A stretch of DNA of 64,000 nt from a virus (taxonomy: Duplodnaviria > Heunggongvirae > Uroviricota > Caudoviricetes), in IMG/VR virus record IMGVR_UViG_2855308460_000004, one strand, 5' to 3'. Positions 539 to 64,000 of this stretch are shown piece by piece. Each line of letters begins with the position of its first letter. Positions within the stretch are counted from its first letter, which is position 1. The position numbers were made by a program, and so were the translations under genes. A model generated the notes under the pieces. That model saw only the letters and a program-made list of their open reading frames with translations, was not told the origin of the DNA and did no database searches.

Positions 539-610
539 TCCTTGGTAGCTCAATGGTAGAGCGTCCGGCTGTTAACCGGGATGTTGCAGGTTCGAGTCCT
601 GTCCTTGGAG
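539..610 (+). tRNA. tRNA-Asn (GTT); acceptor stem has two U·U mismatches (pairs 4–69 and 5–68)
   Basis: Cloverleaf read manually: D-stem gctc/gagc, anticodon loop ctGTTaa, T-arm gcagg-ttcgagt-cctgt. Confidence 0.55.
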
Positions 611-615
611 CTTAT

Positions 616-689
616 GGCTTAGTAGCTTAGAGGCTTAAAGCGCTGCCCTGTCACGGCAGAGATCGTGGGTTCGAATCCCATCTAAGTCG
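616..689 (+). tRNA. tRNA-Asp (GTC)
   Basis: Acceptor ggcttag/ctaagtc, anticodon loop ctGTCac, T-loop ttcgaat. Confidence 0.75.
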
Positions 690-710
690 TTTGTTTCAAA
701 TAATTGTTAC

Positions 711-784
711 TGGTTGATAGCTCAGTTGGTTAGAGCAACCGCCTGTTAAGCGGTGGGTCGTGGGTTCAAGTCCCACTCTTCCAG
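711..784 (+). tRNA. tRNA-Asn (GTT), second copy; same U·U mismatches at acceptor positions 4 and 5
   Basis: Anticodon arm accgc-ctGTTaa-gcggt, T-arm gtggg-ttcaagt-cccac. Confidence 0.55.
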
Positions 785-788
785 CTAT

Positions 789-860
789 ATCTCCATAGTT
801 CAATGGAAGAGCATTACGTTGACATCGTAAAGGTTGTTGGTTCGACTCCAACTGGAGATA
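789..860 (+). tRNA. tRNA-Val (GAC)
   Basis: Perfect acceptor atctcca/tggagat, anticodon loop ttGACat. Confidence 0.8.
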
Positions 861-864
861 TTTT

Positions 865-941
865 GGGATGATAGCTTACTTGCGGTCCGCAGCACTGGTC
901 TGAAAAACCAGAGGGTGATGGTTCGACTCCATCTCATCTCA
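865..941 (+). tRNA. tRNA-Phe (GAA) with an enlarged 12-nt D-loop (77 nt)
   Basis: Anticodon arm ctggt-ctGAAaa-accag, T-arm gatgg-ttcgact-ccatc. Confidence 0.55.
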
Positions 942-945
942 TTTT

Positions 946-1018
946 GGCTTATTAGATTAATTGGTTAAATCACATGCCTGTCACGCATGAGACATGGGTT
1001 CGAATCCCATATAGGTCG
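946..1018 (+). tRNA. tRNA-Asp (GTC), second copy
   Basis: Anticodon arm catgc-ctGTCac-gcatg, T-loop ttcgaat. Confidence 0.75.
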
Positions 1019-1024
1019 TTTTAT

Positions 1025-1097
<73 letters not shown>

Positions 1098-1101
1098 CTT
1101 T

Positions 1102-1173
1102 GCTGGATTAGTTCAGTGGTAGAGCACTGGTCTGATATACCAGGAGTCGTTGGTTCAAATCCAACATCCAGCA
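1102..1173 (+). tRNA. tRNA-Ile (GAT)
   Basis: Perfect acceptor gctggat/atccagc, anticodon loop ctGATat. Confidence 0.8.
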
Positions 1174-1177
1174 TTAC

Positions 1178-1249
1178 ATCCGCATAGCTCAATGGATAGA
1201 GCATCGTTCTTCTAAATCGACGACAAGAGTTCGATTCTCTTTGCGGATA
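1178..1249 (+). tRNA. tRNA-Arg (TCT)
   Basis: Perfect acceptor atccgca/tgcggat, anticodon loop ctTCTaa. Confidence 0.75.
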
Positions 1250-1254
1250 TTTTT

Positions 1255-1328
1255 CGGAGTGTGCAGCTAAATGGTAGGCAGCTTCCCTTGGAAGGAAGAA
1301 CGTGTGAGTTCGAATCTCACTGCTCCGA
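1255..1328 (+). tRNA. tRNA-Pro (TGG); D-arm pairing poor
   Basis: Anticodon arm cttcc-ctTGGaa-ggaag, T-arm gtgag-ttcgaat-ctcac. Confidence 0.6.
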
Positions 1329-1330
1329 CT

Positions 1331-1417
1331 AATCCAGTAGTATAATGGAAGTCGATTTAATATATAAGTACGCTGGCTTGTCCGTCAGTAGTGCCGGTTC
1401 GATTCCGGCCTGGATTG
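1331..1417 (+). tRNA. tRNA-like 87-nt element; no canonical anticodon arm could be folded (atypical tRNA or pseudo-tRNA)
   Basis: Perfect acceptor aatccag/ctggatt and canonical T-arm gccgg-ttcgatt-ccggc; the interior is AT-rich with no 5-bp/7-nt anticodon hairpin. Confidence 0.35.
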
Positions 1418-1421
1418 TTTT

Positions 1422-1495
1422 GGGATCATAGCTCTAAATGGGAGAGCATTTGCCTTGCAAGCAAAGGGTTGAGGGTTCAAATCCCTCTGGTTCCA
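1422..1495 (+). tRNA. tRNA-Ala (TGC)
   Basis: Anticodon arm tttgc-ctTGCaa-gcaaa, T-arm gaggg-ttcaaat-ccctc. Confidence 0.8.
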
Positions 1496-1542
1496 TTTGA
1501 TGAAGTGGGAAAAGTATTATAATTCCGATTTCTATCAATTTA

Positions 1543-1615
1543 CGGGATGTAGCCTAGTTGGTAAGGCGCGTGATTTGGGATCACGAAATCGCAGGTTCAA
1601 GTCCTGTCATTCCGA
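1543..1615 (+). tRNA. tRNA-Pro (TGG), second copy
   Basis: D-stem gcct/aggc, anticodon arm cgtga-ttTGGga-tcacg. Confidence 0.75.
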
Positions 1616-1666
1616 TTTAATTCCATATCATTACCATAGTCTCAGTGATATGGATTATATTAATAT

Positions 1667-1738
1667 GCCCGCTTAACTCAATGGGAGAGTGCTTCCCTTA
1701 CAAGGAAGATGTTACAGGTTCAAGTCCTGCAGCGGGTA
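1667..1738 (+). tRNA. tRNA-Val (TAC)
   Basis: Perfect acceptor gcccgct/agcgggt, anticodon loop ctTACaa. Confidence 0.8.
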
Positions 1739-1740
1739 TT

Positions 1741-1841
1741 ACGCTAATGCCTATGGCAGCTAATGAGCTGGGAGTAAACGAACCTCTGTGCAAGTACTGG
1801 CAGTCAGAAGGCTAGGAAAAGATAAGTGAAACCATTAGCGT
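1741..1841 (+). ncRNA. Structured non-tRNA insert in the array, closed by a 9-bp stem (acgctaatg…cattagcgt); unclassified
   Basis: Long-range inverted repeat plus internal hairpins (cagc-taatga-gctg). No T-loop consensus and no ORF. Confidence 0.3.
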
Positions 1842-1972
1842 ACATAAGCTCCGTGTAAAACACACCAAATAAACATAAGTCTATATAGCGCTGTCGACTA
1901 CGAAGTAGGTGTGTACACGTTAAGATGGTAATATGTAGCAATCCGGGTTCTTTTCGGAGCTTTCCCGGTTAT

Positions 1973-2046
1973 AGTGGATTAGCTCAGTTGGTTAGAGCGT
2001 TGGTCTGATAAGCCAAAGGCCACCGGTTCAAGTCTGGTATCCACTA
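1973..2046 (+). tRNA. tRNA-Ile (GAT), second copy
   Basis: Perfect acceptor agtggat/atccact, anticodon arm ttggt-ctGATaa-gccaa. Confidence 0.8.
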
Positions 2047-2048
2047 TT

Positions 2049-2215
2049 CTGGATTATTAATTTAAATTGCCCAAAACAAATTTAACGGCAGTGGTGGGCG
2101 AAGAGAAGTCGGTATCCCTCACTGCCATGAGGCCAACCACGTGTCTACATAGGATGCAGTCGCACTTCTGTAATATACCGAGCGTGGATTGAAACAAGTT
2201 GGTTTATTAATCCAG
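2049..2215 (+). ncRNA. ~167-nt structured element inside the tRNA array; closing stem ctggatta…taatccag, internal hairpin ggcagtg…cactgcc (2087–2126); unclassified
   Basis: Nested inverted repeats read in the sequence; no tRNA cloverleaf and no plausible ORF. Confidence 0.3.
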
Positions 2216-2345
2216 AAAATTAATATGTTCCTATGCGAAATAATAATATGGAGTCATGACCATAGGATTATATTCATCACTTTTTCATGTGCAAAAAGTA
2301 GAGAGCGATTTGCGAGAACTGGTGCAAGGCCAGACACGAACCCAT

Positions 2346-2416
2346 GCAGATGTAGTTTAACGGAAAAACGCTGTTTTGCCATAGCAGAGTTGAGGGTTCG
2401 ATTCCCTTCATTTGCT
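2346..2416 (+). tRNA. tRNA-Gly (GCC)
   Basis: D-stem gttt/aaac, anticodon arm ctgtt-ttGCCat-agcag, T-arm gaggg-ttcgatt-ccctt. Confidence 0.75.
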
Positions 2417-2421
2417 TCAAA

Positions 2422-2442
2422 CATCCGGCTCATAACCGGATC
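2422..2442 (+). pseudogene. Isolated anticodon-arm-like hairpin (tccgg-ctCATaa-ccgga); possible tRNA-Met remnant
   Basis: 5-bp stem with a 7-nt loop carrying CAT; no D- or T-arm nearby. Confidence 0.3.
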
Positions 2443-2459
2443 TAAAATGTTTTTCTTAT

Positions 2460-2533
2460 ATCAGTATAGCTCAGCAGGCAAGAGCACCAGACTCATACCC
2501 TGGAGGCCGCTGGTTCGATTCCAGCTACTGATA
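2460..2533 (+). tRNA. tRNA-Met/Ile2 (CAT)
   Basis: Perfect acceptor atcagta/tactgat, anticodon loop ctCATac. Confidence 0.7.
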
Positions 2534-2534
2534 T

Positions 2535-2606
2535 TACGGTGTAGTTCAACGGATAGAACATAGGTTTCCTAGACCTACAATATGGGTTCGATTCCCATCA
2601 TCGTAA
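2535..2606 (+). tRNA. tRNA-Arg (CCT)
   Basis: Anticodon arm taggt-ttCCTag-accta. Confidence 0.75.
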
Positions 2607-2608
2607 CT

Positions 2609-2682
2609 GTGGCCGTGGCTCAATTGGTACAGCAGCGGATTGTGGCTCCGCCATTTTGCGGGTTCAACTCCCGTCGGTCACC
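2609..2682 (+). tRNA. tRNA-His (GTG)
   Basis: Anticodon arm gcgga-ttGTGgc-tccgc, acceptor gtggccg/cggtcac. Confidence 0.7.
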
Positions 2683-5918: not shown

Positions 5919-6440
5919 ATGAAATACTATAGTATAAGCGAAATAAAAAATGAGCTATGTAATCATTCAATTACAAGTGATAAGACGGTTTTTAAAAATA
6001 GTATAAAATCCATTAAGGAACAAAGAAAAAGATTTTACTCAATACTTGTACAGTTAGAAGAAGCGTTAGAAAATCGCTTTAAACAAAAAAGTTTCACATA
6101 TAATAGGTTTGATGGGATGATAGCAGAAGTTTCGGAGAACCTAATCAACAATTATGCTTATATTAAAAAAATTATGGATACTTTTGACGATAATGAATAT
6201 AAAAGATTACAAGCATTTCATTTATCTATTCCAAAGGAACTCCAGTATCAAAAATTGGAAATGTATGAGGACATAATTGATAAAATCAGAGATTGCATAA
6301 CCAAAAATGAGAAATTGATTATTCAAATTGAAGGCATCATTCCTGAAATAATCGAACTGAACGATAGAACTGAAGAAATGTCAGAGTCAAGCAAAAAAAT
6401 AGAAGAACTAGTGGAACAACTAAAATTTTATAAACAATAA
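5919..6440 (+). CDS. Hypothetical protein (173 aa, helical/coiled-coil)
   Basis: ORF with RBS aaggagag. Confidence 0.5.
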   Translation: MKYYSISEIKNELCNHSITSDKTVFKNSIKSIKEQRKRFYSILVQLEEALENRFKQKSFTYNRFDGMIAEVSENLINNYAYIKKIMDTFDDNEYKRLQAFHLSIPKELQYQKLEMYEDIIDKIRDCITKNEKLIIQIEGIIPEIIELNDRTEEMSESSKKIEELVEQLKFYKQ

Positions 6441-6524
6441 AATATTTTTACATACTAGTAACAACAACTGAAGTCAGGATATAATATTGTGATTTTAGTT
6501 AATAAAGGAAAGGGAGAACATGAA

Positions 6525-7706
6525 ATGGAAAACTTTAGCCTGGATTTACCAAAGGTAGAGGATATAAAAGAAAATTTGGAAAAAGAATTAAAACTATCAG
6601 ACGAGAGAGAAATTGTGATTTCTGATGCGGCAAGAGAAAAAGCAGACCAGATTCTTCAGGTTGATGCATATGATTTTTCTAATCGTCAGCAGTTAATTAA
6701 AGCAATTGAGACATTTGGCTCAGACTTAATGGAACAGTCAGAAGAAAAAAACGCAATTTTGGGAAAGCGAATCAGTGAATTAAATCGGATGGGTGGAGAG
6801 AGTCAGGCTGTAGCGAATGGCCTTGATAAACTATCAACAGAAGTGGCTGAATTAAATCCGTCTGGGATTGATTTCACAAAAAATGGATTTTTAGGAATCT
6901 TTTTCAATCCTGTAAAGAAATACTTTAAAAAATATGAAACAGCAGATGTTGTAATCGGGAACATAATCGATGCATTGGAAGAAGGCTCCACCATACTTAA
7001 GGATGATAACACAACACTTGAAATTGAAACAACATCAATGAGAAACATATCAAAACAGTTAATTGAAAAAAGAAAACTAGGTCAGGAATTGGATGACTAT
7101 TTAACCATGCAGATAAACAATATGCGTGCAGAGAATGGCGATAATGAAAAGATTAAATTCATCGAAGAAGAAATTCTATTTCCACTAAGACAACGGATGA
7201 TTGATTTTGGCCAGAAACTGGCCGTGAATCAACAGGGTATCATTGCAATGGAAACAACAAAAAGAAATAATTATGAGTTGATTCGATCGGTTGAAAGAGC
7301 CAAATTTGTAACGGTATCTGCATTACGAACAGCAGTAATTGTTGCAGGATCATTATATAACCAGAATCTTGTTATGTCCAAAATAAAGTTAGTTAATGAT
7401 ACAACGAATGATATGATTGCTACGACATCAAAAATGCTGAAAACCCAAGGTGTAGAAATCCAAAAACAAGCCATTGAAACAAATATAGATATGGACACAC
7501 TTAAGCTGGCAATTACCGATGCATTAGAAGCGTTTGAATCTATTAATAGCTACAAGCAGAAAGCATTACCGCAAATGAAACAAACATTAGCGGAATTTGA
7601 CACCCTTGTAACACAAGGGCAAAAAATTGTAGATGGCATTGAATCATCTGAAAACTTAAGATTAGAAATGATGGGAGATACAAAAGGGAAATTGACGGAT
7701 AAATAA
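6525..7706 (+). CDS. TelA-like (toxic anion resistance family) protein
   Basis: ~390-aa all-helical protein whose size and motif pattern are recalled from the TelA/YaaN family. Start chosen at the ATG with RBS gggag. Confidence 0.45.
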   Translation: MENFSLDLPKVEDIKENLEKELKLSDEREIVISDAAREKADQILQVDAYDFSNRQQLIKAIETFGSDLMEQSEEKNAILGKRISELNRMGGESQAVANGLDKLSTEVAELNPSGIDFTKNGFLGIFFNPVKKYFKKYETADVVIGNIIDALEEGSTILKDDNTTLEIETTSMRNISKQLIEKRKLGQELDDYLTMQINNMRAENGDNEKIKFIEEEILFPLRQRMIDFGQKLAVNQQGIIAMETTKRNNYELIRSVERAKFVTVSALRTAVIVAGSLYNQNLVMSKIKLVNDTTNDMIATTSKMLKTQGVEIQKQAIETNIDMDTLKLAITDALEAFESINSYKQKALPQMKQTLAEFDTLVTQGQKIVDGIESSENLRLEMMGDTKGKLTDK

Positions 7707-10791: not shown

Positions 10792-12114
10792 ATGTTTGTA
10801 TTAATGAAAAATAAAGGGACAAGAAATAAAATATTATTGATTTTAGGATTCATAATATTTGTTCGTATTGGAAGTATTATTCCAATACCTGGGATTAATA
10901 GTGAATATATGAAATCAATCATATCAGGATCCGGATTTCAGTTCTTTAATATGATTACAGGTAACTCTTTTTCCAAGATGTCTCTATTTGCACTAAGTAT
11001 AAGTCCATATATCACAGCGTCAATCATCATCCAATTAATGACTGTAATAATTCCTAAATTAGAAGATTTAAGTAAGGATGGAAAAACAGGACTAGAAAAG
11101 ATTCAAAAAATAACAAATGTTACTGGAATTATAATAGGTTTCATCCAATCTTTTTTCATGGCAGTCAGTTTGGGATCAAAAGGTCTTCTTAATCCATATA
11201 CATGGTGGATGGTTTTGATTGCAACCTGCATCTGGACATTAGGAGCTACTATTTTAATCATAATGGGTGAGAAGATAACGAAACTGGACCTTGGAAATGG
11301 AATATCCTTTATATTATTATTCAATATCCTATCTACATTCCCTGGTGATCTAATGGTTGTCTATGAACGGTTTTCATATGATAGTAAACCAGTTGCAATT
11401 GCTTTAAAACTTTTTTTGGCAATAGCCGTATTCATGGTTTTCCTGGCTGGATGTATCTATTTGAATTTATCTGAAAAAAGAATACAGATAAGATTTTCTA
11501 GAAAGAGCATAAATAATGAGCAAGGAAAAGATTTGCCAATATCATTGAATATCTGTAATGTGATGCCAGTCATTTTTACTGGAAGTATTATAAGCATGGT
11601 TAACATTGCAGCAACTTTCAGCTCCAATCAAATACTATTAACAATTTCAAAATACTTATCACCCAATAATTGGTTTATAATAGGTAGTCTAAAATATACA
11701 TTAGGTTGCATTGTATATATACTGCTTGCCTATTTCTTTGCAAATTTTTATTTAGACATAGCATTTAATGCCACTGAAATTGCACAAAGATTGAAAGCTC
11801 AAGGTGCTACCATTCCAGGAATTAGGCCAGGAAAACCAACATCAGAATTTTTACATACAAATGCGTTTGAAATGATGGTACTAGGGACTGGTTTGATGTT
11901 GTGCATTGTTCTGGGAGCATCTTTGGTGTGTAATATCTTTGGAATAGGTGTTTTGAGTATTGGCGGTACATCTATCCTAATCTGCGTTAATGTAATCATA
12001 GAAACATACAAAAAAATTAAAACAGCTGCCCAAAGTGTAAGGGTTCAGAGTTACTATAAGAAAAAGAATAGCAGAAAGTCATTATTCCAGATGAAAGGAG
12101 TCTATAATGTTTAA
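10792..12114 (+). CDS. secY: SecY preprotein translocase subunit homolog (440 aa), outside any ribosomal-protein operon
   Basis: FVRIGSIIPIPGIN; FALSISPYITASIIIQLMTVI; GKTGLEKIQKITN; GNGISFIL; GIRPGKPTSEFL; GGTSILI — these match SecY signatures across all regions. Confidence 0.85.
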   Translation: MFVLMKNKGTRNKILLILGFIIFVRIGSIIPIPGINSEYMKSIISGSGFQFFNMITGNSFSKMSLFALSISPYITASIIIQLMTVIIPKLEDLSKDGKTGLEKIQKITNVTGIIIGFIQSFFMAVSLGSKGLLNPYTWWMVLIATCIWTLGATILIIMGEKITKLDLGNGISFILLFNILSTFPGDLMVVYERFSYDSKPVAIALKLFLAIAVFMVFLAGCIYLNLSEKRIQIRFSRKSINNEQGKDLPISLNICNVMPVIFTGSIISMVNIAATFSSNQILLTISKYLSPNNWFIIGSLKYTLGCIVYILLAYFFANFYLDIAFNATEIAQRLKAQGATIPGIRPGKPTSEFLHTNAFEMMVLGTGLMLCIVLGASLVCNIFGIGVLSIGGTSILICVNVIIETYKKIKTAAQSVRVQSYYKKKNSRKSLFQMKGVYNV

Positions 12115-12256
12115 TCGCATTCACCAAATGTATATACCAGATAAGATTAAAGTAATTAAAACAATGGTAATGGTAAGCTTGTCTATTTTAATATTGTCAA
12201 GCTTTGTATTTAGTATTGACACACTTATTGCAGGAATATATCAGATGATAATATAA
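12107..12256 (+). CDS. Possible small membrane protein (49 aa) overlapping the secY stop
   Basis: ATG overlaps the secY stop; hydrophobic. Confidence 0.25.
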   Translation: MFNRIHQMYIPDKIKVIKTMVMVSLSILILSSFVFSIDTLIAGIYQMII

Positions 12257-12262
12257 AATAAA

Positions 12263-12283
12263 AAGAAGGCGCAAGCCTTCTTT
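12263..12283. terminator. Bidirectional terminator between secY (+) and clpP (−)
   Basis: gaaggc-gcaa-gccttc flanked by A and T runs. Confidence 0.6.
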
Positions 12284-12878
12284 ATTTTGTTGATACGATT
12301 GTATCTACAATACCATATGCCAATGCTTCATCAGCAGTCAGATAGTTGTCTCTTTCTGTATCTTCACATACCGTGACATAGGGCTTCCCGGTATTCTCAG
12401 ATAAAATTCTGTTTAAACGTTCTTTGGTTTTTTTAATATGGTCAGCGACAATCAGGATTTCGGTTGCCTGGCCTTTTGCACCTCCACTTGGCTGATGAAT
12501 CATTACCTCCGCATTCGGCATAATCATACGTTTGCCTTTTGTACCACCAGCAAGCAGGAATGCTCCCATGCTAGCAGCCATTCCCATACAGATTGTGGAA
12601 ACATCACTTTTGATATATTTCATTGTGTCATAAATAGCCATCCCTGCAGTTACAGACCCACCCGGACTGTTAATGTATAAATAAATATCTTTACCAGGAT
12701 CAACAGAATCCAAAAATAGAAGCTGAGAAGTGATAGAGGCGGCCATTTCATCACAAACTTCTCCAGTTAACATGATGATTCTGTCATTAAGTAATCTTGA
12801 AAAAATATCATATGATCTTTCTCCAGTAGCTGTTCTTTCTATTACATATGGCATTGTAGTCATATTCGTATATCCCAT
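12282..12878 (-). CDS. clpP: ATP-dependent Clp protease proteolytic subunit ClpP
   Basis: Ser-His-Asp motifs [31 protein letters not shown]; bacterial-type length. Confidence 0.9.
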
Positions 12879-13101
12879 AATTATATCTCCTTTTATTCTA
12901 TAAATTTTACATGTTTATAATGTTAAAAAAAAGGACCATATAACTACTAAATTGTATTCTGTGCGTATTACGGTTTGTGACCATCGATAATTTCGAATTA
13001 TATCGGAAGTTAAAATGACATTATATATGCATCAACAGAAATAGATGGAGCATATTTAATGTTTTTATATTTCTGTATTAAAACAAAAGGAGAATTTCAA
13101 T

Positions 13102-13620
13102 ATGAAACTTACTATTATTGGAAAAACTGTTACAATTACGGATGGTATGAGGGAGGCTATTACCGAAAAGCTTTCTAAATGTGATAAATATTTAAAGGAA
13201 AACACGCCGGTAAGAGTAGTTGTCCGAACTGTAAGAGATGACCAAATCATTGAGGTAGCCATTCCAACTGGAAAGAATAAGGAAATCCGAGCAGAACGCA
13301 GAAGTAAGGATCTTTATGAAGCAATTGATTTGGTAGAAGAAGTTCTCAACAGACAGCTTAGGAAACAGAAAGAAAAGAAATTAGATAAGAAACGTATACC
13401 GGTTATGTTTTTAGAAACAGAGCCAGAAGCAGAAATCAAACCGCTTATTATGAAAGAAAAACAGTTTGATTTACAGATGATGACTCCTGAAGAGGCGGTT
13501 GAGGAACTGGAGGCTTTAGACCATGACTTTCATTTATTTATGAATGTGATGGATGGTAGGGTAGGTGTCGTATATAGAAGGAAAGAGGCTGGATACGGGC
13601 TGCTTGCAGCAAATATGTAA
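13102..13620 (+). CDS. hpf: Ribosome hibernation promoting factor (long HPF/RaiA family)
   Basis: MKLTIIGK…ITDGMREAI; N-terminal RaiA fold plus a C-terminal dimerisation domain; 172 aa. Confidence 0.75.
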   Translation: MKLTIIGKTVTITDGMREAITEKLSKCDKYLKENTPVRVVVRTVRDDQIIEVAIPTGKNKEIRAERRSKDLYEAIDLVEEVLNRQLRKQKEKKLDKKRIPVMFLETEPEAEIKPLIMKEKQFDLQMMTPEEAVEELEALDHDFHLFMNVMDGRVGVVYRRKEAGYGLLAANM

Positions 13621-13697: not shown

Positions 13698-14111
13698 ATG
13701 ATGATAGAGAAATATTTTGAGATGACAAAGAGAGTGGCCATGAACTCTGAATTCAACAGAGTCCATGTTGGATGTATTGCCATTTATAAAGGCAGAATGA
13801 TAGGTTCAGGTTTCAATTCAGAGAAGACACATCCAATGCAGTATCACTATAACCGATATCGGCAGAATGATAATGTGATATCAGCTAATCTGTTGCCAAA
13901 GATTCATGCTGAAATCATGTGCATCAGTAGCATAAAAAACCAGGATATTGATTTTAAAAAGGTTAAGCTATTTATCTATAGAATTAGAAATGACCAGCCT
14001 TTTGGTATTGCAAGGCCATGCGCGGCATGCATGAATGCAATAAAAGATTTAGGAATCAAAAATATATACTATACAACTGATGTGGGTTATGCACATGAAT
14101 ACTTGGCCTGA
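13698..14111 (+). CDS. dCMP/cytidine deaminase-family zinc enzyme (137 aa)
   Basis: HAE…PCAAC zinc-binding signature. Confidence 0.65.
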   Translation: MMIEKYFEMTKRVAMNSEFNRVHVGCIAIYKGRMIGSGFNSEKTHPMQYHYNRYRQNDNVISANLLPKIHAEIMCISSIKNQDIDFKKVKLFIYRIRNDQPFGIARPCAACMNAIKDLGIKNIYYTTDVGYAHEYLA

Positions 14112-14147: not shown

Positions 14148-14789
14148 TTATTTTGACTCAAAATACGATTTCAATTTCTCGTTATGATGAAGTAAAGTAA
14201 TCAGTGTTTTATCATTGCCTTTTAACACGGTTTCAACCATATCATACGGAAGAAACTGTAACGCGCACATGGTTTTTTTAATATGATAATCCATATCAAA
14301 ATATGTGCGGATATAATATTCCTGCAGATTTGGAATCTCTCCTATAAACGGCTGACAATCAGGATCTGACATGATTTCTTTTCGTATATCCATTGGACAT
14401 AAAGGATGTATCATGATTTGAGTCCGAACAGCATAATCATCGGGTAATAAAGAATTATTATATACAAGCCTCAGAAAATCACAGGTACAGTCTTTCTTAT
14501 TCTCCACTATTTTATACTTTAAATAAGTCGTTGCTGTTTTTAGGACTTGCTTAATGAGTTCTGGTGGACAGTTTGGAGCGGTTGCAATCGCTAATTGTAT
14601 TTTTTCATTATTGCTATCGACATATGACCACAACTCATGAATGGAAATCTTCCCTAAGGTACAATCTTCATAGAAGGTATCAGAAACAGTTTCTATTTCT
14701 TTAATAAAGCCATATTTCCTTAATCTGTTTTTTATTTTATTAAGGAAAAAATATATATGCAACCTGTATTTTAATCTGCTTAACTTCAT
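14148..14789 (-). CDS. Hypothetical protein (213 aa)
   Basis: ORF flanked by terminators. Confidence 0.5.
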   Translation of the reverse strand: MKLSRLKYRLHIYFFLNKIKNRLRKYGFIKEIETVSDTFYEDCTLGKISIHELWSYVDSNNEKIQLAIATAPNCPPELIKQVLKTATTYLKYKIVENKKDCTCDFLRLVYNNSLLPDDYAVRTQIMIHPLCPMDIRKEIMSDPDCQPFIGEIPNLQEYYIRTYFDMDYHIKKTMCALQFLPYDMVETVLKGNDKTLITLLHHNEKLKSYFESK

Positions 14790-16092: not shown

Positions 16093-16458
16093 AGTATCTA
16101 AATAATGGTCATTGAGCATAGATATATCTTATAGAAGAAGTGATTCTTCCATAAGAAAATCGATTGCTGACTACACACCAATAGCCACCATTAAAAAGAT
16201 GCGTTACTTCCTTCATAATAATAAAAAATAACATTATCCAAAGGTGAAATAATAGTACACATGCTTACAGTTAAAAAGAAGAAAGGAGATTAATGAAATG
16301 AGATATCGTTGTCAGTTATTGCAGGTTTGTTTAGAACAATGTACTACTCTTAAAAAACAGGAGTGGTTAGTTTTGAATGCAAAAATTGAATGATGATATC
16401 GAAGTATTATTAATCCATAAAACTATTTATGTATAGATTTCGTGCTATACACAATTAT

Positions 16459-16486
16459 GGGATTACTTCGGTAGTCCCATTTTTAT
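16459..16486 (+). terminator. Terminator/attenuator hairpin immediately upstream of tRNA array 2
   Basis: gggattac-ttcg-gtagtccc + TTTTT. Confidence 0.55.
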
Positions 16487-16488
16487 TT

Positions 16489-16570
16489 GCTCGCATGGCG
16501 GAACAGGAAGACGCATGGGACTTAAAATCCCAGGAAGAAATTCGTGAGGGTTCGATTCCCTCTGTGAGTA
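16489..16570 (+). tRNA. tRNA-Leu (TAA), class II
   Basis: Anticodon arm tggga-ctTAAaa-tccca, long variable arm, T-arm gaggg-ttcgatt-ccctc. Confidence 0.7.
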
Positions 16571-16575
16571 CTGAT

Positions 16576-16647
16576 AGATCGATGGTGTAAATGGCAACAT
16601 GATGGTCTCCAAAACCATTGCTCAGGGTTCGAGTCCCTGTCGGTCTG
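16576..16647 (+). tRNA. tRNA-Trp (CCA)
   Basis: Anticodon arm atggt-ctCCAaa-accat. Confidence 0.8.
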
Positions 16648-16651
16648 TTAT

Positions 16652-16736
16652 ACGGCTATTGCCAAGCGGTAAGGCGGGAGGCTTTGACCCTCTTAAATAT
16701 CAATAGATTTCGCTGGTTCGAATCCAGCTAGCCGTG
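16652..16736 (+). tRNA. Class II-shaped tRNA (Ser-like D-arm, 18-nt variable region) with ambiguous anticodon (loop ctttgac: TTG or shifted TGA)
   Basis: Perfect acceptor acggcta/tagccgt; D-arm gcc-aagcggtaa-ggc; T-arm gctgg-ttcgaat-ccagc. Confidence 0.45.
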
Positions 16737-16763
16737 TTATATAACTACCAAAGTTATAATCCT

Positions 16764-16836
16764 GGCCGCATAGTCGAGTGGTTATGACGGGAGCCTTTCA
16801 AGCTTCAGGTGTCGGGTTCAATTCCCACTGCGGTCA
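16764..16836 (+). tRNA. tRNA-Glu (TTC); T-stem has mismatches
   Basis: Anticodon arm ggagc-ctTTCaa-gcttc; acceptor ggccgca/tgcggtc. Confidence 0.5.
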
Positions 16837-16862
16837 TTATATCAAAATAAGGAGATAAAAAA

Positions 16863-16898
16863 ATGAAACGAAAAACAGAACGTACGAAAACAGAATGA
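16863..16898 (+). CDS. 11-codon mini-ORF (MKRKTERTKTE) with a strong RBS inside the tRNA array
   Basis: aaggagat, 8-nt spacer, then ATG; ends 9 nt before tRNA-Lys. Confidence 0.25.
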   Translation: MKRKTERTKTE

Positions 16899-16906
16899 AA
16901 TTATAC

Positions 16907-16980
16907 GCGCCTGTAGCTCAGTTGGCTAAAGCAACCGGCTTTTAACCGGTAGACCGTGGGTTCGAGTCCCACTAGGCGCA
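16907..16980 (+). tRNA. tRNA-Lys (TTT)
   Basis: Anticodon arm accgg-ctTTTaa-ccggt. Confidence 0.8.
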
Positions 16981-16984
16981 TTTA

Positions 16985-17066
16985 GCACGTATCGCCTAGT
17001 GGTAGGGCACTCGACTTTTAATCGAGAGGCACATGGCCATCCTGGGTTCGAATCCCAGTACGTGCA
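16985..17066 (+). tRNA. tRNA-Lys(TTT)-like with an anomalous 15-nt variable region (82 nt)
   Basis: Perfect acceptor gcacgta/tacgtgc; anticodon arm ctcga-ctTTTaa-tcgag; T-arm ctggg-ttcgaat-cccag. Confidence 0.45.
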
Positions 17067-17071
17067 TTCAT

Positions 17072-17143
17072 GCATCGTAGCCCATGCGGAGTGGGAACAG
17101 TCTGCAAAACTGTCTTTGGTCGGTTCGACTCCGACACGATGCT
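17072..17143 (+). tRNA. tRNA-Cys (GCA)
   Basis: Perfect acceptor; anticodon arm acagt-ctGCAaa-actgt. Confidence 0.8.
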
Positions 17144-17412
17144 TGTGCATATTATCGCTGTGGCAAAAAAAGTACTAAAGATATCGGAAACAGCATAAAA
17201 CGACTCTTTGGTAAATAGCACAGACGCATGGAACTAACAATTGTGAAATGCGGAGCAGACAGGATAGGAAAATTGATATGCTGGTCAAAATTACTACTGT
17301 AAAAAAACATGGTATATGAAACTATATCTGCGTAAAGTGGTGAGGTTCTTTTGGATGCCCGATGAAATAAAAATAATGCTTTCGGCCAACTCCACGTAAT
17401 ATGCCCAATTAA

Positions 17413-17832
17413 TTGGAGGTTGTAATGTATCATTTGATAAAGAAACATCAATACCTTGTAATTAGTATCTTATTTATGGTTGTCTTGAGAGGAATAGAGT
17501 TTGCGTTAGTAAATACAGGACATGAATTTGAAATGGTACTCCTTGATCCTATAGCATTCGCACTGCTGTATGTTTTGCTGGCAATAAAATGTAATATTAC
17601 GGATATAAGCAAGATAACATTTACTTTAATATGTCTCATTATGATGTATATAGTAAGCGAATCAATTTTTTTAGTTCCACATTCTTGGATTACTTATAAG
17701 GATAAGGGTTTTTTTGGAGGCCTTTACACATTAATGTATTCATTAACAATCCTGTATGATTGGATATATGTAATCGTGTGTTATTTAATAACAATTATAG
17801 TTAAATTAGTCATTAATAGACTGCGTCTGTAG
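17413..17832 (+). CDS. Small polytopic membrane protein (139 aa) between the two halves of array 2; its stop lies inside the next tRNA
   Basis: RBS ggaggt; four hydrophobic segments; TAG stop at 17830–17832, inside tRNA-Lys (17823–17895). Confidence 0.5.
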   Translation: MEVVMYHLIKKHQYLVISILFMVVLRGIEFALVNTGHEFEMVLLDPIAFALLYVLLAIKCNITDISKITFTLICLIMMYIVSESIFLVPHSWITYKDKGFFGGLYTLMYSLTILYDWIYVIVCYLITIIVKLVINRLRL

Positions 17833-17895
17833 CTCAGCTGGAAGAGCAGGTGGCTCTTAACCATCAGGTCCAGGGTTCGATGCCCTGCAGGCGCA
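17823..17895 (+). tRNA. tRNA-Lys (CTT)
   Basis: Anticodon arm ggtgg-ctCTTaa-ccatc. Confidence 0.8.
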
Positions 17896-17936
17896 TTTCT
17901 ATCCAATAGGAAAGATTCATGTGAATTATAAATTTA

Positions 17937-18010
17937 GGCGCTATAGTGGAATTGGTTATCACGCCAGACTCTCAATCTGGAGACTGCGAGTTCAAGCCTC
18001 GCTAGCGTCA
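17937..18010 (+). tRNA. tRNA-Glu (CTC)
   Basis: Anticodon arm ccaga-ctCTCaa-tctgg. Confidence 0.8.
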
Positions 18011-18013
18011 TAT

Positions 18014-18093
18014 GTCCATATGGTGGAACGGAATACACGCTCGGCTAAGAACCGGGTCCCAAGAGGATGTGGGTTCAAATCCCACTATGGACA
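18014..18093 (+). tRNA. Class II tRNA with anticodon loop ctAAGaa (Leu AAG; A34 is unusual)
   Basis: Perfect acceptor gtccata/tatggac; 12-nt variable arm; T-arm gtggg-ttcaaat-cccac. Confidence 0.5.
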
Positions 18094-18097
18094 TTAT

Positions 18098-18170
18098 AGC
18101 CCAATAGTTCAACTGGAAGAACATCAGTTTCTGAATCTGAATGTTGCAGGTTCGAATCCTGCTTGGGTTG
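18098..18170 (+). tRNA. tRNA-Gln (CTG)
   Basis: Anticodon loop ttCTGaa. Confidence 0.7.
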
Positions 18171-18193
18171 TCAAACAGAGTTTTTGATAATTT

Positions 18194-18275
18194 GCCCATA
18201 TGGCGTAATGGCAGACGCTGTGGACTTAAAATCCACTGGATTCATTCCGTGCCGGTTCGAGTCCGGCTATGGGTA
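18194..18275 (+). tRNA. tRNA-Leu (TAA), second copy
   Basis: Perfect acceptor gcccata/tatgggt; anticodon arm gtgga-ctTAAaa-tccac. Confidence 0.8.
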
Positions 18276-18283
18276 TTTATTTT

Positions 18284-18355
18284 GGCATCTTCGACAAGTT
18301 GGTAAGTCGCAGGTATTTCAAACCTGAGTCACTGGTTCGAATCCAGTAGATGTCA
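18284..18355 (+). tRNA. tRNA-Glu (TTC)-like (loop atTTCaa, A32)
   Basis: Acceptor ggcatct/agatgtc; T-arm actgg-ttcgaat-ccagt. Confidence 0.5.
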
Positions 18356-18358
18356 TCA

Positions 18359-18429
18359 GCTTTCATAGTTTAAAGGTAGAACAGCTGCCTCGTAAGCAGT
18401 CAATGACAGTTCGATTCTGTCTGGAAGCT
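18359..18429 (+). tRNA. tRNA-Thr (CGT)
   Basis: Anticodon arm gctgc-ctCGTaa-gcagt; T-arm gacag-ttcgatt-ctgtc. Confidence 0.7.
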
Positions 18430-18430
18430 T

Positions 18431-18591
18431 TCCTATAGTCGCTGTGGTACGGACACAGACGCCATCGCAGGTCATAGTGGCGGAGCAAGGACGAGTCGAA
18501 ACGATGACGGTATTAGACAGTCTAAATAGAGCAAAGGCAGATTGCTTGCGTAAAGAGGTGAGTCTTAGCGGACAATTCCTCGCTATAGGAA
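18431..18591 (+). ncRNA. ~160-nt structured element between tRNAs, closed by a 9-bp stem (tcctatagt…gctatagga); unclassified
   Basis: Long-range inverted repeat plus internal hairpins (gcaaaggcagattgcttgc, cgaaacg loop); no ORF. Confidence 0.3.
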
Positions 18592-18676
18592 TACTATATA
18601 TTTTTGACCGTTTGTGGAGCTGACTTTTTGGTATGTGAGGTTAGTGGTGACAATGAGGAGGAGGGCATTGTCATTA

Positions 18677-18757
18677 GCTCGTATGATGGAAAGGAAGACA
18701 TGGCTGACTCAAAATCAGCTGCCGATAGGCGTAAGGGTTCAAATCCCTTTATGAGCA
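18677..18757 (+). tRNA. tRNA-Leu (CAA)
   Basis: Anticodon arm gctga-ctCAAaa-tcagc; class II. Confidence 0.75.
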
Positions 18758-18763
18758 TGCAAT

Positions 18764-18843
18764 GTTCATGTGGCGGAATGGAATACGCGTGCGGCTCAGA
18801 ACCGCATGGTTATACCTTGTGGGTTCGAATCCCACCATGAACA
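18764..18843 (+). tRNA. tRNA-Leu (CAG)
   Basis: Perfect acceptor; anticodon arm tgcgg-ctCAGaa-ccgca. Confidence 0.8.
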
Positions 18844-18846
18844 TCT

Positions 18847-18918
18847 GCCTTTATAGGCTAATGGACAAACTGCCTGACTTCGAATCAGGTGTTATGAGTT
18901 CGAATCTCATTAAAGGCA
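18847..18918 (+). tRNA. tRNA-Arg (TCG)
   Basis: Anticodon arm cctga-ctTCGaa-tcagg. Confidence 0.75.
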
Positions 18919-18922
18919 CTAA

Positions 18923-18994
18923 GTTCCTGTAGGCTAATGGATAAACCATCCGGCTACGAACCGGCAATTGGGAGTTCGAATCTCTTCAGGAACA
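18923..18994 (+). tRNA. tRNA-Arg (ACG)
   Basis: Perfect acceptor gttcctg/caggaac; anticodon loop ctACGaa. Confidence 0.75.
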
Positions 18995-18998
18995 TGAA

Positions 18999-19077
18999 GC
19001 CCGCATGGTGGAATGGAAGACATGCCTGACTTAGGATCAGGTGCGAAAGCGTGAGGGTTCAAATCCCTCTGTGGGTA
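18999..19077 (+). tRNA. tRNA-Leu (TAG)
   Basis: Anticodon arm cctga-ctTAGga-tcagg; variable arm tgcgaaagcgt. Confidence 0.8.
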
Positions 19078-19085
19078 TAAATAAA

Positions 19086-19108
19086 GGAGACAATTGTCTC
19101 CTTTTTTA
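19086..19108 (+). terminator. Intrinsic terminator closing tRNA array 2
   Basis: ggagacaattgtctcc + TTTTTT. Confidence 0.7.
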
Positions 19109-22709: not shown

Positions 22710-23915
22710 GTGTTCGAGTTAAAAGGAAAATATAATAAGTGCAAAATCTTTACGGACGATGTAGATGAGGATTGTATAAGGCAATTAATTTCGCTGCTGA
22801 ATCAAGAGAGTTTACAAGACTCAATAATAAGGATTATGCCGGATGCGCATGCTGGAGCGGGATGTGTGATAGGTACAACAATGACCATTACAGATAAAGT
22901 TATTCCCAATTTAGTTGGCGTTGATATAGGTTGTGGTATGCGTACAGTGAGACTCAAAGAAAAACGGATTGAATTACCAAAATTAGATAGCATAATTCGT
23001 AAGAACATTCCTTCAGGTGGAAGTATACATGACAAATTCAATCAACTTCAATATGCAAGACGATTTGATATTGAACGCCTTCGCTGCATAGGAAAAAATA
23101 ATTGCAAAGTAAGTGAAGACATTGCTGCTTGCAGTATTGGAACACTTGGCGGCGGAAATCATTTCATTGAAGTCGACAAAGATGAAGATGGTAACTTATA
23201 TCTGGTTGTTCATACTGGAAGCCGTAGGCTTGGTAAAGATGTTGCTGAATACTATCAAAATAGGGCCTATGAGGAACTAAATTGTGTTGCCACCTATTAC
23301 AAAGAAATTAAAAAGAAGGATAGGCGGGAAAAGTGGGAAAGACCTGATCCAAGTAAATTGCCATCTGTTCCATATGAATTAGCATACTGTGAAAATGAAT
23401 TGTTGGCTGATTATATCCATGATATGGAGGTTGTGCAGGAATATGCATTTTGGAATCGGAAAGCTATTGCGAATACGATTTTAAAGGAAATGAAACTTCA
23501 TTCAGTAGAAGAATTTGAGACAGTCCACAACTATATTGATACTGAATATATGATTCTTAGAAAAGGTGCCGTCTCAGCAAGGAAAGTTGAAAAAATTTTA
23601 ATCCCGATAAATATGCGTGATGGTTCTTTACTTTGTATGGGAAAAGGAAATGAGGATTGGAATTATTCCGCACCACATGGAGCTGGCCGCTTGATGTCAA
23701 GAAGTCAGGCAAAAGAAAATATTACATTATCAGCATTCAAGAAAACAATGAAGGAGGCAGGTGTTTATAGTACATCGGTGACACGAGATACCATTGATGA
23801 GTCACCATTTGTATACAAACCCATGGAGGAGATTGTAGAAAACATAAAGGATACAGTAGAAATCATAAATGTAATTAGACCAATCTATAATTTTAAAGCT
23901 AGTGTGAAAGAATAG
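22710..23915 (+). CDS. rtcB: RtcB-family RNA ligase (GTG start)
   Basis: MPDAHAGAGCVIG and GGGNHFIEV metal-binding motifs. Confidence 0.8.
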   Translation: MFELKGKYNKCKIFTDDVDEDCIRQLISLLNQESLQDSIIRIMPDAHAGAGCVIGTTMTITDKVIPNLVGVDIGCGMRTVRLKEKRIELPKLDSIIRKNIPSGGSIHDKFNQLQYARRFDIERLRCIGKNNCKVSEDIAACSIGTLGGGNHFIEVDKDEDGNLYLVVHTGSRRLGKDVAEYYQNRAYEELNCVATYYKEIKKKDRREKWERPDPSKLPSVPYELAYCENELLADYIHDMEVVQEYAFWNRKAIANTILKEMKLHSVEEFETVHNYIDTEYMILRKGAVSARKVEKILIPINMRDGSLLCMGKGNEDWNYSAPHGAGRLMSRSQAKENITLSAFKKTMKEAGVYSTSVTRDTIDESPFVYKPMEEIVENIKDTVEIINVIRPIYNFKASVKE

Positions 23916-63124: not shown

Positions 63125-64000
63125 ATGCGTAAAGTATTAGTTTTAAGAGGTGCTCCTGGCGCAGGAAAGACAACATGGATTAAAGACAAGAAACTGGTTC
63201 CATATACCTTATCATTTGACAATATCAGGATGCTATATCAAAGCCCGATACAGACAATCTATGGACGAGAGTCTACTGGTCAAAAGGCAAATGCACAGGC
63301 TTATGATACTCTATTCAGTATATTGGAAGAGCGTATGAAGAACGGAGAATTCACCGTGATTGATTGTGTGAACAGCAAGAAATCACAAATTCAGAAATAT
63401 CAGGAATTAGCCTTAAAATACCGATACGAGTTGTATGTTGTTGATTTTACCACAGTCCCAATTGGCGTTGCAAAATCCAGGAACATTCATCGTTCCGCAA
63501 GAAAAAGGGTTCCAGACAGCGTTGTTGAAAATGCTTATAATGAATTCAAAGAGGAAGCACTGTCAGATAAAATAAAAGTAATTAAACCGGATGAGTTAAA
63601 TACAATATATGAAAAACCTGTAGATTTATCAGTATACAGGAAAATTCATCATATCGGAGATATCCATGGTTGCGATGAAGTATTAAAAAGGGCACTGAAT
63701 GATAATGGGAACCTACGCGAAGATGAATTCTATATCTTTCTTGGTGACTACACAGATAAAGGACCTCGTAGCGATAGAATTCTTGAATTCTTACTATCAA
63801 TCAGGAACAAGCCAAATGTAATCCTTTGTGAAGGAAACCATGAACATTGGATATGGAATTGGAGTAATGGAATAGAAGATTACTCAGAAGATTTCATGAC
63901 GAATACATTTCCTCAGCTTAATGGCATAAATAAAAAGGATATCAGAAAGCTGTATAGACAACTGAAAGAGTGTTTCATCTATACTTATAAAGGAAAGAAT
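63125..64000 (+). CDS. Pnkp-like polynucleotide kinase-phosphatase (P-loop kinase plus calcineurin-type metallophosphatase); 3' end lies beyond the window
   Basis: LRGAPGAGKTT; GDIHG, GDYTDKG, EGNHE metallophosphoesterase motifs. Absent from the ORF track only because no stop falls within the window. Confidence 0.75.
   Translation, partial: MRKVLVLRGAPGAGKTTWIKDKKLVPYTLSFDNIRMLYQSPIQTIYGRESTGQKANAQAYDTLFSILEERMKNGEFTVIDCVNSKKSQIQKYQELALKYRYELYVVDFTTVPIGVAKSRNIHRSARKRVPDSVVENAYNEFKEEALSDKIKVIKPDELNTIYEKPVDLSVYRKIHHIGDIHGCDEVLKRALNDNGNLREDEFYIFLGDYTDKGPRSDRILEFLLSIRNKPNVILCEGNHEHWIWNWSNGIEDYSEDFMTNTFPQLNGINKKDIRKLYRQLKECFIYTYKGKN

Follow-up and report, generated by a model that had tools for sequence, protein, structure and literature searches.

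Long variable arms on tRNA-Gln(UUG) and tRNA-Lys(UUU) genes, beside a tRNA-Leu(AAG) gene, in a dense tRNA array of a putative mobile element

This report concerns three unusual tRNA genes in IMG/VR virus record IMGVR_UViG_2855308460_000004. The stretch that we analysed, called the window here (64,000 nucleotides), belongs to contig QSGP01000005.1 (472 kb; assembly GCA_003467385.1) and has a GC content of ~33%. tRNA genes were called with ARAGORN and with the Rfam covariance model RF00005 at its gathering threshold of 29 bits. ARAGORN placed 37 tRNA genes in two dense blocks (539-2682 and 16489-19077); Rfam added one further gene (865-941). The three genes of interest lie in the second block, array 2, and are designated tRNA 1 (16652-16736), tRNA 2 (16985-17066) and tRNA 3 (18014-18093). 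A first-pass annotation had described them as class II-shaped tRNAs with unexpected anticodons, either identity-switched or nonstandard. Both programs agreed on all three genes, with RF00005 scores above the threshold and E-values of ~1e-10 to 1e-14, and minimum-free-energy folding returned a five-arm cloverleaf for each. The anticodons were those of the manual reading, namely UUG, UUU and AAG (loops CTTTGAC, CTTTTAA and CTAAGAA, respectively), and the variable-region lengths of 18 nt for tRNA 1 and 15 nt for tRNA 2 were also confirmed. The split between class I and class II, by which only Leu, Ser, bacterial Tyr and Sec tRNAs have a long variable arm, is treated as near-universal in bacteria.

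The body of tRNA 1 closely resembles that of tRNA-Gln. The gene has acceptor and T stems of 7 and 5 bp, an A1-U72 pair and the discriminator G73, and it encodes no CCA. In comparison with the annotated E. coli glnU, the D-arm GCCAAGCGGTAAGGC is identical (15/15 nt), as is the T-arm CTGGTTCGAATCCAG, and both genes have G73; the likeness to E. coli tRNA-Gln(UUG) (glnU/glnW) extends to the context of the UUG loop. The only large difference is a single 13-nt insertion in the variable loop, which in E. coli is the 5-nt CAUUC. What had been taken for a Ser-like D-arm is therefore the canonical tRNA-Gln D-arm, whose stem is 3 bp in glnU too. A 1-nt shift of the anticodon to UGA, also proposed earlier, was ruled out: with the 5-bp stem GGAGG/CCTCT the loop can only be 7 nt long, which places UUG at positions 34-36. 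Apart from UUG (U35, G36), the tRNA-Gln elements present are the G10-C25 pair, G73 and the Gln-type D- and T-arms. The acceptor stem has G3-C70, as in E. coli tRNA-Gln, and a 1-72 pair that is weak but inverted (A-U); most phage long-arm Gln tRNAs, unlike tRNA 1, have U1-A72.

Isotype was assessed with rough profile hidden Markov models built from the canonical-shaped tRNAs of the fetched loci; all long-arm Gln and Lys tRNAs and all their close relatives were excluded from the profiles. The Gln profile scored 24.9 bits against full-length tRNA 1 and 31.2 bits without the insert, the runner-up scored 13.5 bits and all other isotypes stayed below 15 bits. The lead of Gln was thus ~10 bits at full length and ~18 bits with the insert removed, and Ser was not among the six best isotypes. 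Nor does the rest of the molecule have a Ser-type body: it has the 9-nt D-loop of tRNA-Gln, the acceptor pairs A1-U72, C2-G71 and G3-C70, and the anticodon UUG. The two additional D-loop nucleotides (20a/20b) of E. coli tRNA-Ser are missing as well, and so are its acceptor-stem pairs. These comparisons show tRNA 1 to have, by prediction, a tRNA-Gln(UUG) body whose 5-nt variable loop has received an inserted hairpin.

In tRNA 2, the anticodon loop is CTTTTAA and the minimum-free-energy fold is exactly the five-arm cloverleaf (z = -2.6). The identity set for lysine consists of the UUU anticodon triplet and A73 (PMC9976931), and tRNA 2 carries both. Like E. coli tRNA-Lys(UUU) (lysT), it combines UUU, A73 and the CUUUUAA loop with a class I D-arm and 7/5 stems. 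The Lys profile ranked first, at 29.6 bits for the full-length gene and 35.3 bits with the insert removed (Asn, 29.6). With tRNA-Leu it shares only A73, as its D-arm is of class I. The departure from canonical form is the same as that of tRNA 1: where canonical Gln and Lys tRNAs have a 5-nt variable loop, these genes have hairpin-forming regions of 18 nt and 15 nt. We conclude that tRNA 2, as its predicted structure shows, is a tRNA-Lys(UUU) body with an inserted variable hairpin similar to that of tRNA 1. Because an ordinary tRNA-Lys(UUU) lies 4 nt upstream of it, array 2 holds both versions of the same decoder. Two copies of that ordinary gene in related contigs (L053:12874-12947 and L066:2306-2379, corresponding to 16907-16980 of the window) have C33, in the loop CCTTTAA. 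U33 is universal at this position of tRNA, and C33 belongs to a kind of anticodon-loop variant that has been linked to nuclease evasion.

The assignment of tRNA 3 was straightforward. The Leu profile scored 38.7 bits against 16.5 bits for the next isotype, and the D-arm resembles those of the other six Leu tRNAs of the array, leaving A34 as its only unusual feature. The gene is, as had been stated earlier, of class II with the anticodon AAG, and it has a Leu-type D-arm and a 12-nt variable arm. Its anticodon arm, CGG-CTAAGAA-CCG (18040-18056), differs only at position 35 from that of the tRNA-Arg(ACG) of array 2, CGG-CTACGAA-CCG (18949-18965), and the arm common to the two (CGG-CTANGAA-CCG) suggests a common substrate for an A34 deaminase. 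tRNA-Arg(ACG) is the classic substrate of TadA. Host TadA would probably deaminate tRNA-Leu(AAG) to IAG, which would read CUU, CUC and possibly CUA; the near identity of the two anticodon arms fits such editing. A deaminase gene at 13698-14111 was rejected as a TadA candidate, for only dCMP-deaminase models matched it, and weakly. Leu codons in the genes of the element include CTT at 18% and CTC at 3%. The description of A34 as unusual in bacteria stands, although tRNA-Leu(AAG) has been published for Lactobacillales, where its editing to IAG by TadA is documented (PMC13249217, PMC11472039). tRNA 3 resembles those tRNAs in being a class II Leu tRNA with A34, in its Firmicute setting and in the large excess of CUU over CUC; it differs in lying on a mobile array rather than being a core chromosomal gene, and I34 is here only predicted. 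tRNA 3 is, by its sequence, a normal tRNA-Leu with the anticodon AAG, of a known type.

Taken over the three genes, "nonstandard" is thus apt for tRNAs 1 and 2, whose long arms fall outside the class I/class II division, and inapt for tRNA 3. "Identity-switched" finds no support in any of them: the Gln, Lys and Leu profiles rank first, and the genes have, respectively, Gln D- and T-arms with G73, UUU with A73, and a Leu body.

Table 1. Positions of the tRNA genes, their parts and two RNA-repair genes in the window
Feature	Coordinates	Strand	Details
tRNA array 1	539-2682	+	18 ARAGORN calls and one Rfam-only tRNA-Phe at 865-941
tRNA array 2	16489-19077	+	19 tRNA genes, many spaced by only 2-5 nt
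tRNA 1: tRNA-Gln(UUG), long variable arm	16652-16736	+	RF00005 55.1 bits; ARAGORN Gln(ttg)
tRNA 1 anticodon TTG	16684-16686	+	7-nt loop CTTTGAC, closed by stem GGAGG/CCTCT
tRNA 1 variable region, 18 nt, TAAATATCAATAGATTTC	16694-16711	+	A/U-rich hairpin drawn by ARAGORN and RNAfold
Ordinary class I tRNA-Lys(UUU), 74 nt	16907-16980	+	RF00005 69.2 bits; 4 nt upstream of tRNA 2
tRNA 2: tRNA-Lys(UUU), long variable arm	16985-17066	+	RF00005 67.1 bits; 7/5 stems, 4-bp D-stem, 7-nt D-loop, A73
tRNA 2 variable region, 15 nt	17027-17041	+	A-GGC-ACATG-GCC-ATC; 3-bp stem, 5-nt loop
tRNA 3: class II tRNA-Leu(AAG)	18014-18093	+	RF00005 54.1 bits; ARAGORN; A34, A73, Leu-type 3-bp D-stem, long D-loop; anticodon loop CTAAGAA
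tRNA 3 variable arm, 12 nt	18057-18068	+	Variable region of the class II tRNA-Leu
RtcB-family RNA ligase	22710-23915	+	Pfam PF01139, 4.5e-65; 3.6 kb downstream of array 2
Pnkp-like polynucleotide kinase-phosphatase gene (399 aa), 5' part	63125-64000	+	Continues past window end, in L176:11876-13075

The gene order of array 2 was found again in five metagenome contigs (L048, L053, L066, L075 and L080). In these syntenic copies the tRNAs are ~98% identical, and the spacers are 94-95% identical with large indels. The 18-nt variable region of tRNA 1 is invariant among them; the sole change in that gene is U43 to C43 in four copies, by which G27-U43 becomes G27-C43. Changes in tRNA 2 are confined to the loop of the extra arm, and those in tRNA 3 preserve its structure. 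A broader comparison was provided by a 10-sequence alignment of the Lys(UUU) family that shares the D-arm of tRNA 2. In this alignment 98.3% of cells were paired, against 30-51% in slid controls, and 13 pairs had changed on both sides; two of the three pairs of the extra helix covary in this manner. Covariation was present in each helix that varies in this family, the extra one included. None of 500 shuffles reached the observed paired cells, double-sided changes or covariation score, and 7 of 500 reached the observed count of further pair types. The extra helix itself occurs in the versions GGC/GCC, GGG/CCC, GGAT/ATCC, GGAA/TTCC and GCG/CGC. Compensatory changes are thereby shown to preserve the predicted extra hairpin of the Lys family in phage and metagenome arrays that have diverged from one another, and the extra arms look selected, not decayed.

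Long arms on these two isotypes recur elsewhere. Long-arm Gln(UUG) genes were found in 14 IMG/VR contigs, as opposed to 1 of 185,579 GTDB species-representative genomes; that sole match to the long-arm tRNA-Gln pattern, which tRNA 1 fits, came from an unrelated Clostridiales metagenome-assembled genome (MAG). The Gln(UUG) inserts differ in sequence among lineages and form hairpins of 3-7 bp in all but the shortest (11 nt, L007), which forms none. In one type of phage of ~45 kb, the long-arm Gln(UUG) is the only tRNA in the 9-14 kb that were fetched, and the scaffold and major head genes follow directly downstream of it. Contigs of this type are L003 (an 84-nt tRNA-Gln at 6373-6456), L004-L009, L012, L013 and L015. 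We rejected the idea that the gene is an attP remnant in these single-tRNA phages, as it is full-length and sits inside the head-gene module.

A degenerate pattern for long-arm Lys(UUU) matched 8 viral and 68 metagenome stretches, and about half of the metagenome matches were discarded as archaeal tRNA-Lys genes with a canonical intron. (Among L027-L093, e.g. L028:900-963, there are ~40 tRNA-Lys(UUU) genes of archaeal type, nearly identical to one another, whose anticodon loop holds a canonical intron; they are unrelated to the long-arm finding.) Phage arrays contain two independent families of long-arm Lys(UUU), often adjoining a normal Lys(UUU); in the second family, which is unrelated to the first, the hairpin is GNRA-capped. 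Relatives of tRNA 2 in other arrays sit beside normal Ser and Tyr tRNAs.

Other isotypes are affected as well. A sample of viral loci that were chosen by RtcB homology, without use of any tRNA pattern, contained 121 unique tRNAs, among which one Gln(UUG), one Asn and one Cys tRNA had long arms; the loci fished by pattern also hold long-arm Trp, Thr, Val, Pro, Cys, Asn and Ile(UAU) tRNAs. The converse case was seen in L020, L037, L064, L065 and L157 (e.g. L064:7137-7372), which have phage tRNA-Leu genes of 73-77 nt without the long variable arm and with the anticodons UAA, CAA, UAG, AAG and CAG. Variable-arm gain or loss is, on these predictions, an occasional trait of phage tRNAs in many isotypes, with Gln(UUG) and Lys(UUU) as recurrent cases. 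One contig, L133, carries an 86-nt tRNA-Asn(GUU) that has G73, a D-arm of class II type and a variable hairpin capped by GAAA (14230-14315), and also a 90-nt Gln(UUG) with A73 and a D-arm unlike that of tRNA-Gln (6562-6651), which is a better candidate for a true identity switch. Phage and MAG arrays with long-arm tRNAs also include genes to which ARAGORN assigned 4-base anticodons (L010:3584-3664, cgtt; L025:4244-4323, ttct; L024:5978-6046, aatg); these could be frameshift-type tRNAs or prediction artefacts. No specific description of long-variable-arm Gln or Lys tRNAs in phages was found in the open-access literature. The long-arm class I Gln and Lys tRNAs of phage and mobile-element arrays thus apparently constitute a recurrent, undescribed variant.

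The setting of the three genes is as follows. A tRNA array unit, or L-array, has been defined as at least 20 tRNA genes at a density of at least 2 per kb, supernumerary and horizontally acquired (PMC4758250, PMC8421152). Arrays 1 and 2 are two 19-gene blocks of ~7-9 tRNA genes per kb, with 13.8 kb of protein-coding genes between them; neither has a Ser or Tyr tRNA, and there is no tRNA within 4 kb upstream of the window. They resemble the published horizontally transferred long arrays in being dense, probably supernumerary and acquired clusters with an HNH endonuclease gene nearby, and in that the array tRNAs differ from core copies in the anticodon domain and variable arm. Terminator-like hairpins lie directly before the first tRNA of array 2 (16457-16480) and directly after its last (19083-19104); no convincing promoter was found for this array. 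Two members of array 1 are odd. One is the Rfam-only tRNA-Phe(GAA) at 865-941, which has an oversized D-loop and was missed by ARAGORN, and which scores 56.9 bits. The other, called by ARAGORN only, is an 89-nt "tRNA-Ile(UAU)" (1330-1418) that has a long variable arm, but its D-arm is poor and it contains a G.A mismatch. We dropped the latter as a third long-arm member, since it gave no Rfam tRNA match even at E <= 1; a genuine decoder of AUA would matter, as ATA makes up 34% of the Ile codons in the open reading frames of the window.

Genes between and around the arrays encode TnpB, a DNA methylase, RtcB, a radical-SAM protein, an HNH endonuclease, ParA, a primase-like protein, a sigma factor and a RecD2-like helicase. 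Between the arrays (10792-13620) there are also extra copies of housekeeping type: SecY (276 bits, above the equivalog cutoff), ClpP and a ribosome hibernation factor. Directly beyond the end of the window are the Pnkp-like kinase-phosphatase, a topoisomerase and PcfJ. The Pnkp-like protein matches TIGR04075 (bacterial Pnkp) at 9.7e-20 across its kinase and phosphatase domains, as well as Pfam AAA_33 and Metallophos, and is without a ligase domain; together with RtcB, it would supply RNA end-healing and sealing on the element. Homologues of this RtcB were collected from 78 IMG/VR contigs, 21 of which have tRNA genes within 10 kb.

No phage structural genes were seen among the genes of the element. 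Megablast of 25-kb chunks returned no similar record among GenBank phages or PLSDB plasmids, and the element is therefore uncharacterised; BLAST of single tRNAs against GenBank phages gave no match or uninformative ones. In our reading, this is an uncharacterised mobile element of a low-GC gut Firmicute (assembly GCA_003467385.1), and the arrays are a long tRNA array that reached it by horizontal transfer.

What, then, do the three genes do? On balance we favour, with modest confidence, the reading that they are functional supernumerary tRNAs on a horizontally acquired array: two long-arm decoders that would be charged with their cognate amino acids, Gln and Lys, and a Leu(AAG). In tRNAs 1 and 2 the 7/5 architecture is kept and the stems are intact; the anticodon and the discriminator, which define identity, are still those of Gln and Lys. 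tRNA 1 would be charged with Gln, via glutamyl-tRNA synthetase and GatCAB or via glutaminyl-tRNA synthetase (GlnRS), and would then read CAA; tRNA 2 would be charged with Lys by lysyl-tRNA synthetase (LysRS) and would read AAA. Ribosomes accept class II tRNAs, and the extra arm would be tolerated by them as it is in Leu, Ser and Tyr tRNAs. Charging of such a molecule has a precedent: an amber tRNA-Ser was turned Gln-accepting by two acceptor-stem base-pair swaps, and GlnRS can therefore charge a class II scaffold (PMC9976931).

Several observations weigh against this interpretation. LysRS is a class II synthetase and approaches tRNA from the variable-loop side, where the arm of tRNA 2 could hinder it; moreover, the lead of the Lys profile over Asn for this tRNA is only ~3-6 bits. 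In tRNA 1, the acceptor pairs are A1-U72 and C2-G71, where E. coli tRNA-Gln has U1-A72 and G2-C71, and base pair 1-72 counts for Gln identity (PMC9976931). In the same tRNA a long arm occurs together with G73 and a 3-bp D-stem that has C11-G24, all of them features that seryl-tRNA synthetase (SerRS) uses. Conservation among the syntenic copies of array 2 carries little weight as evidence, given how closely these are related. Long arms are also met here and there in other phage tRNAs (Asn, Cys, Thr, Trp, Val and Pro), and the trait is thus not specific to U-rich anticodons. For tRNA 3, no TadA gene is encoded in the window.

A true identity switch is one rival explanation, and we deem it unlikely. 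The arm would recruit SerRS to tRNA 1 (G73, 3-bp D-stem, C11-G24), or leucyl-tRNA synthetase (LeuRS) or tyrosyl-tRNA synthetase to tRNA 2 (A73, U35), and CAA or AAA would be read partly as Ser, Leu or Tyr, as with nematode nev-tRNAs and bacterial allo-tRNAs. A long arm (18 nt, here forming 5-6 bp) and G73 are the elements that SerRS mainly reads, and tRNA 1 has both, while E. coli LeuRS requires A73 and neither the anticodon nor the arm (PMC9976931). Furthermore, nev-tRNAs whose anticodons are those of Gly or Ile accept leucine in vitro (PMC3333845, PMC4300185), and the arrays are without a Ser or Tyr tRNA. However, the bodies are of Gln and Lys type, not of Ser, Leu or Tyr type. tRNA 1 lacks the two additional D-loop nucleotides and the acceptor pairs of E. 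coli tRNA-Ser, and the D-arm of tRNA 2 is of class I, unlike those of the Leu tRNAs in the same array. In other Gln lineages the arm ranges from an unstructured 11 nt to 25 nt, with no single geometry that would fit SerRS, and cognate identity elements are kept throughout the long-arm families. We also rejected the notion that the long-arm tRNAs substitute for the missing Ser and Tyr tRNAs: where relatives of tRNA 2 occur, normal Ser and Tyr tRNAs are found too, and the bodies do not resemble those of Ser or Tyr tRNAs.

The two precedents for such a switch differ in structure from the genes described here. The nev-tRNAs and other eukaryotic tRNAs with a noncanonical variable arm (PMC3333845, PMC4300185) are a different group: nev-tRNAs are class II, nematode and charged with leucine in vitro, whereas tRNAs 1 and 2 are class I Gln and Lys bodies that have gained an arm and kept their cognate elements, and they occur in arrays of a bacterial mobile element or phages. 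The allo-tRNAs (Mukai et al., PMC5389517) have 8/4 or 9/3 acceptor/T stems and a long, tRNA-Sec-like D-stem with a tetraloop, and many are serylated; tRNAs 1-3 all have 7-bp acceptor and 5-bp T stems and ordinary D-arms.

An explanation that we likewise regard as improbable is that the genes are decaying or neutral supernumerary copies, in which insertions into the variable loop are tolerated since host tRNAs do the work and the arms have no function. L-arrays do add redundant isodecoders that are often poorly expressed (PMC8421152), and array 1 has other odd members in its "tRNA-Ile(UAU)" and its tRNA-Phe. The A/U-only arm of tRNA 1 is thermodynamically weak, and variable-arm gain and loss is scattered across many isotypes. 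Against decay stand the high Rfam scores, the integrity of every stem, the covariation of the extra helix and the greater conservation of the tRNAs than of the spacers. In addition, the hairpins have been gained repeatedly and independently in Gln and Lys tRNAs, many are capped by GNRA or UUCG tetraloops, and small phages retain a long-arm Gln as the only tRNA of the fetched stretch, within the head-gene module.

A role outside translation is decidedly unlikely. The genes would then be regulators, decoys or sponges of toxins that target tRNA, or handles for an enzyme of the element (RtcB, the Pnkp-like protein or an ATP-grasp protein). In favour of it, an ordinary copy of the same decoder adjoins, RNA-repair genes are on the element and some irregular bacterial tRNAs are charged yet unused in translation (PMC5389517). 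Against it, a pure decoy would need none of the canonical anticodon loops (U33, purine 37), intact T-loops and synthetase identity elements seen here, and no partner protein co-occurs consistently in the loci examined.

If, as we favour, tRNAs 1 and 2 are cognately charged decoders, what would the arm be for? It would alter recognition by tRNA-binding enzymes other than the synthetases. The most likely benefit would be escape from host anticodon nucleases, or from other tRNA-targeting defences, that hit tRNAs with U-rich anticodons, such as tRNA-Lys(UUU) and related tRNAs, and the element would keep a resistant spare beside its ordinary tRNA-Lys(UUU). Our grounds for proposing altered recognition by tRNA-targeting enzymes are that standard and arm-bearing Lys(UUU) genes stand side by side, that RtcB and a Pnkp-like end-healing enzyme are on the element, and that tRNA arrays are discussed as anti-defence devices (PMC12803027) and phage tRNAs rescue infection from tRNA-cleaving defences (PMC11464382, PMC11555353). 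Weighing against it, an anti-nuclease role of the arm is pure conjecture, and no anticodon nuclease was identified in the host. Published evasion of defences by phage tRNAs works through differences in the anticodon loop or sequence (PMC12803027, PMC11464382, PMC11555353); none of the papers found reports Gln or Lys tRNAs to which an entire variable arm has been added. Tentatively, then, we raise the possibility, itself rather doubtful, that phages and mobile tRNA arrays have time and again equipped class I tRNAs, chiefly Gln(UUG) and Lys(UUU), with a hairpin of class II style and thereby obtain "armoured" isoacceptors that would be charged and would decode normally while escaping host defences that cleave or modify tRNA. 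A bolder variant would have the arm confer partial serine identity on tRNA 1, with the element deliberately mistranslating CAA.

These genes carry a warning for annotation. A long arm together with an odd anticodon does not by itself amount to recoding, and class II filters based on length will misfile long-arm Gln and Lys genes. The tRNA-Leu(AAG) is a mobile-element addition to the recently described I34-Leu decoding of bacteria. The Gln and Lys tRNAs break the class I/class II split with their own identity elements kept, and they offer a cheap experimental handle on whether synthetases, EF-Tu and the ribosome accept such an arm and on whether it protects against anticodon nucleases. Should the "armoured" isoacceptors prove true, they would represent a structural anti-defence strategy distinct from the known anticodon-loop mutations.

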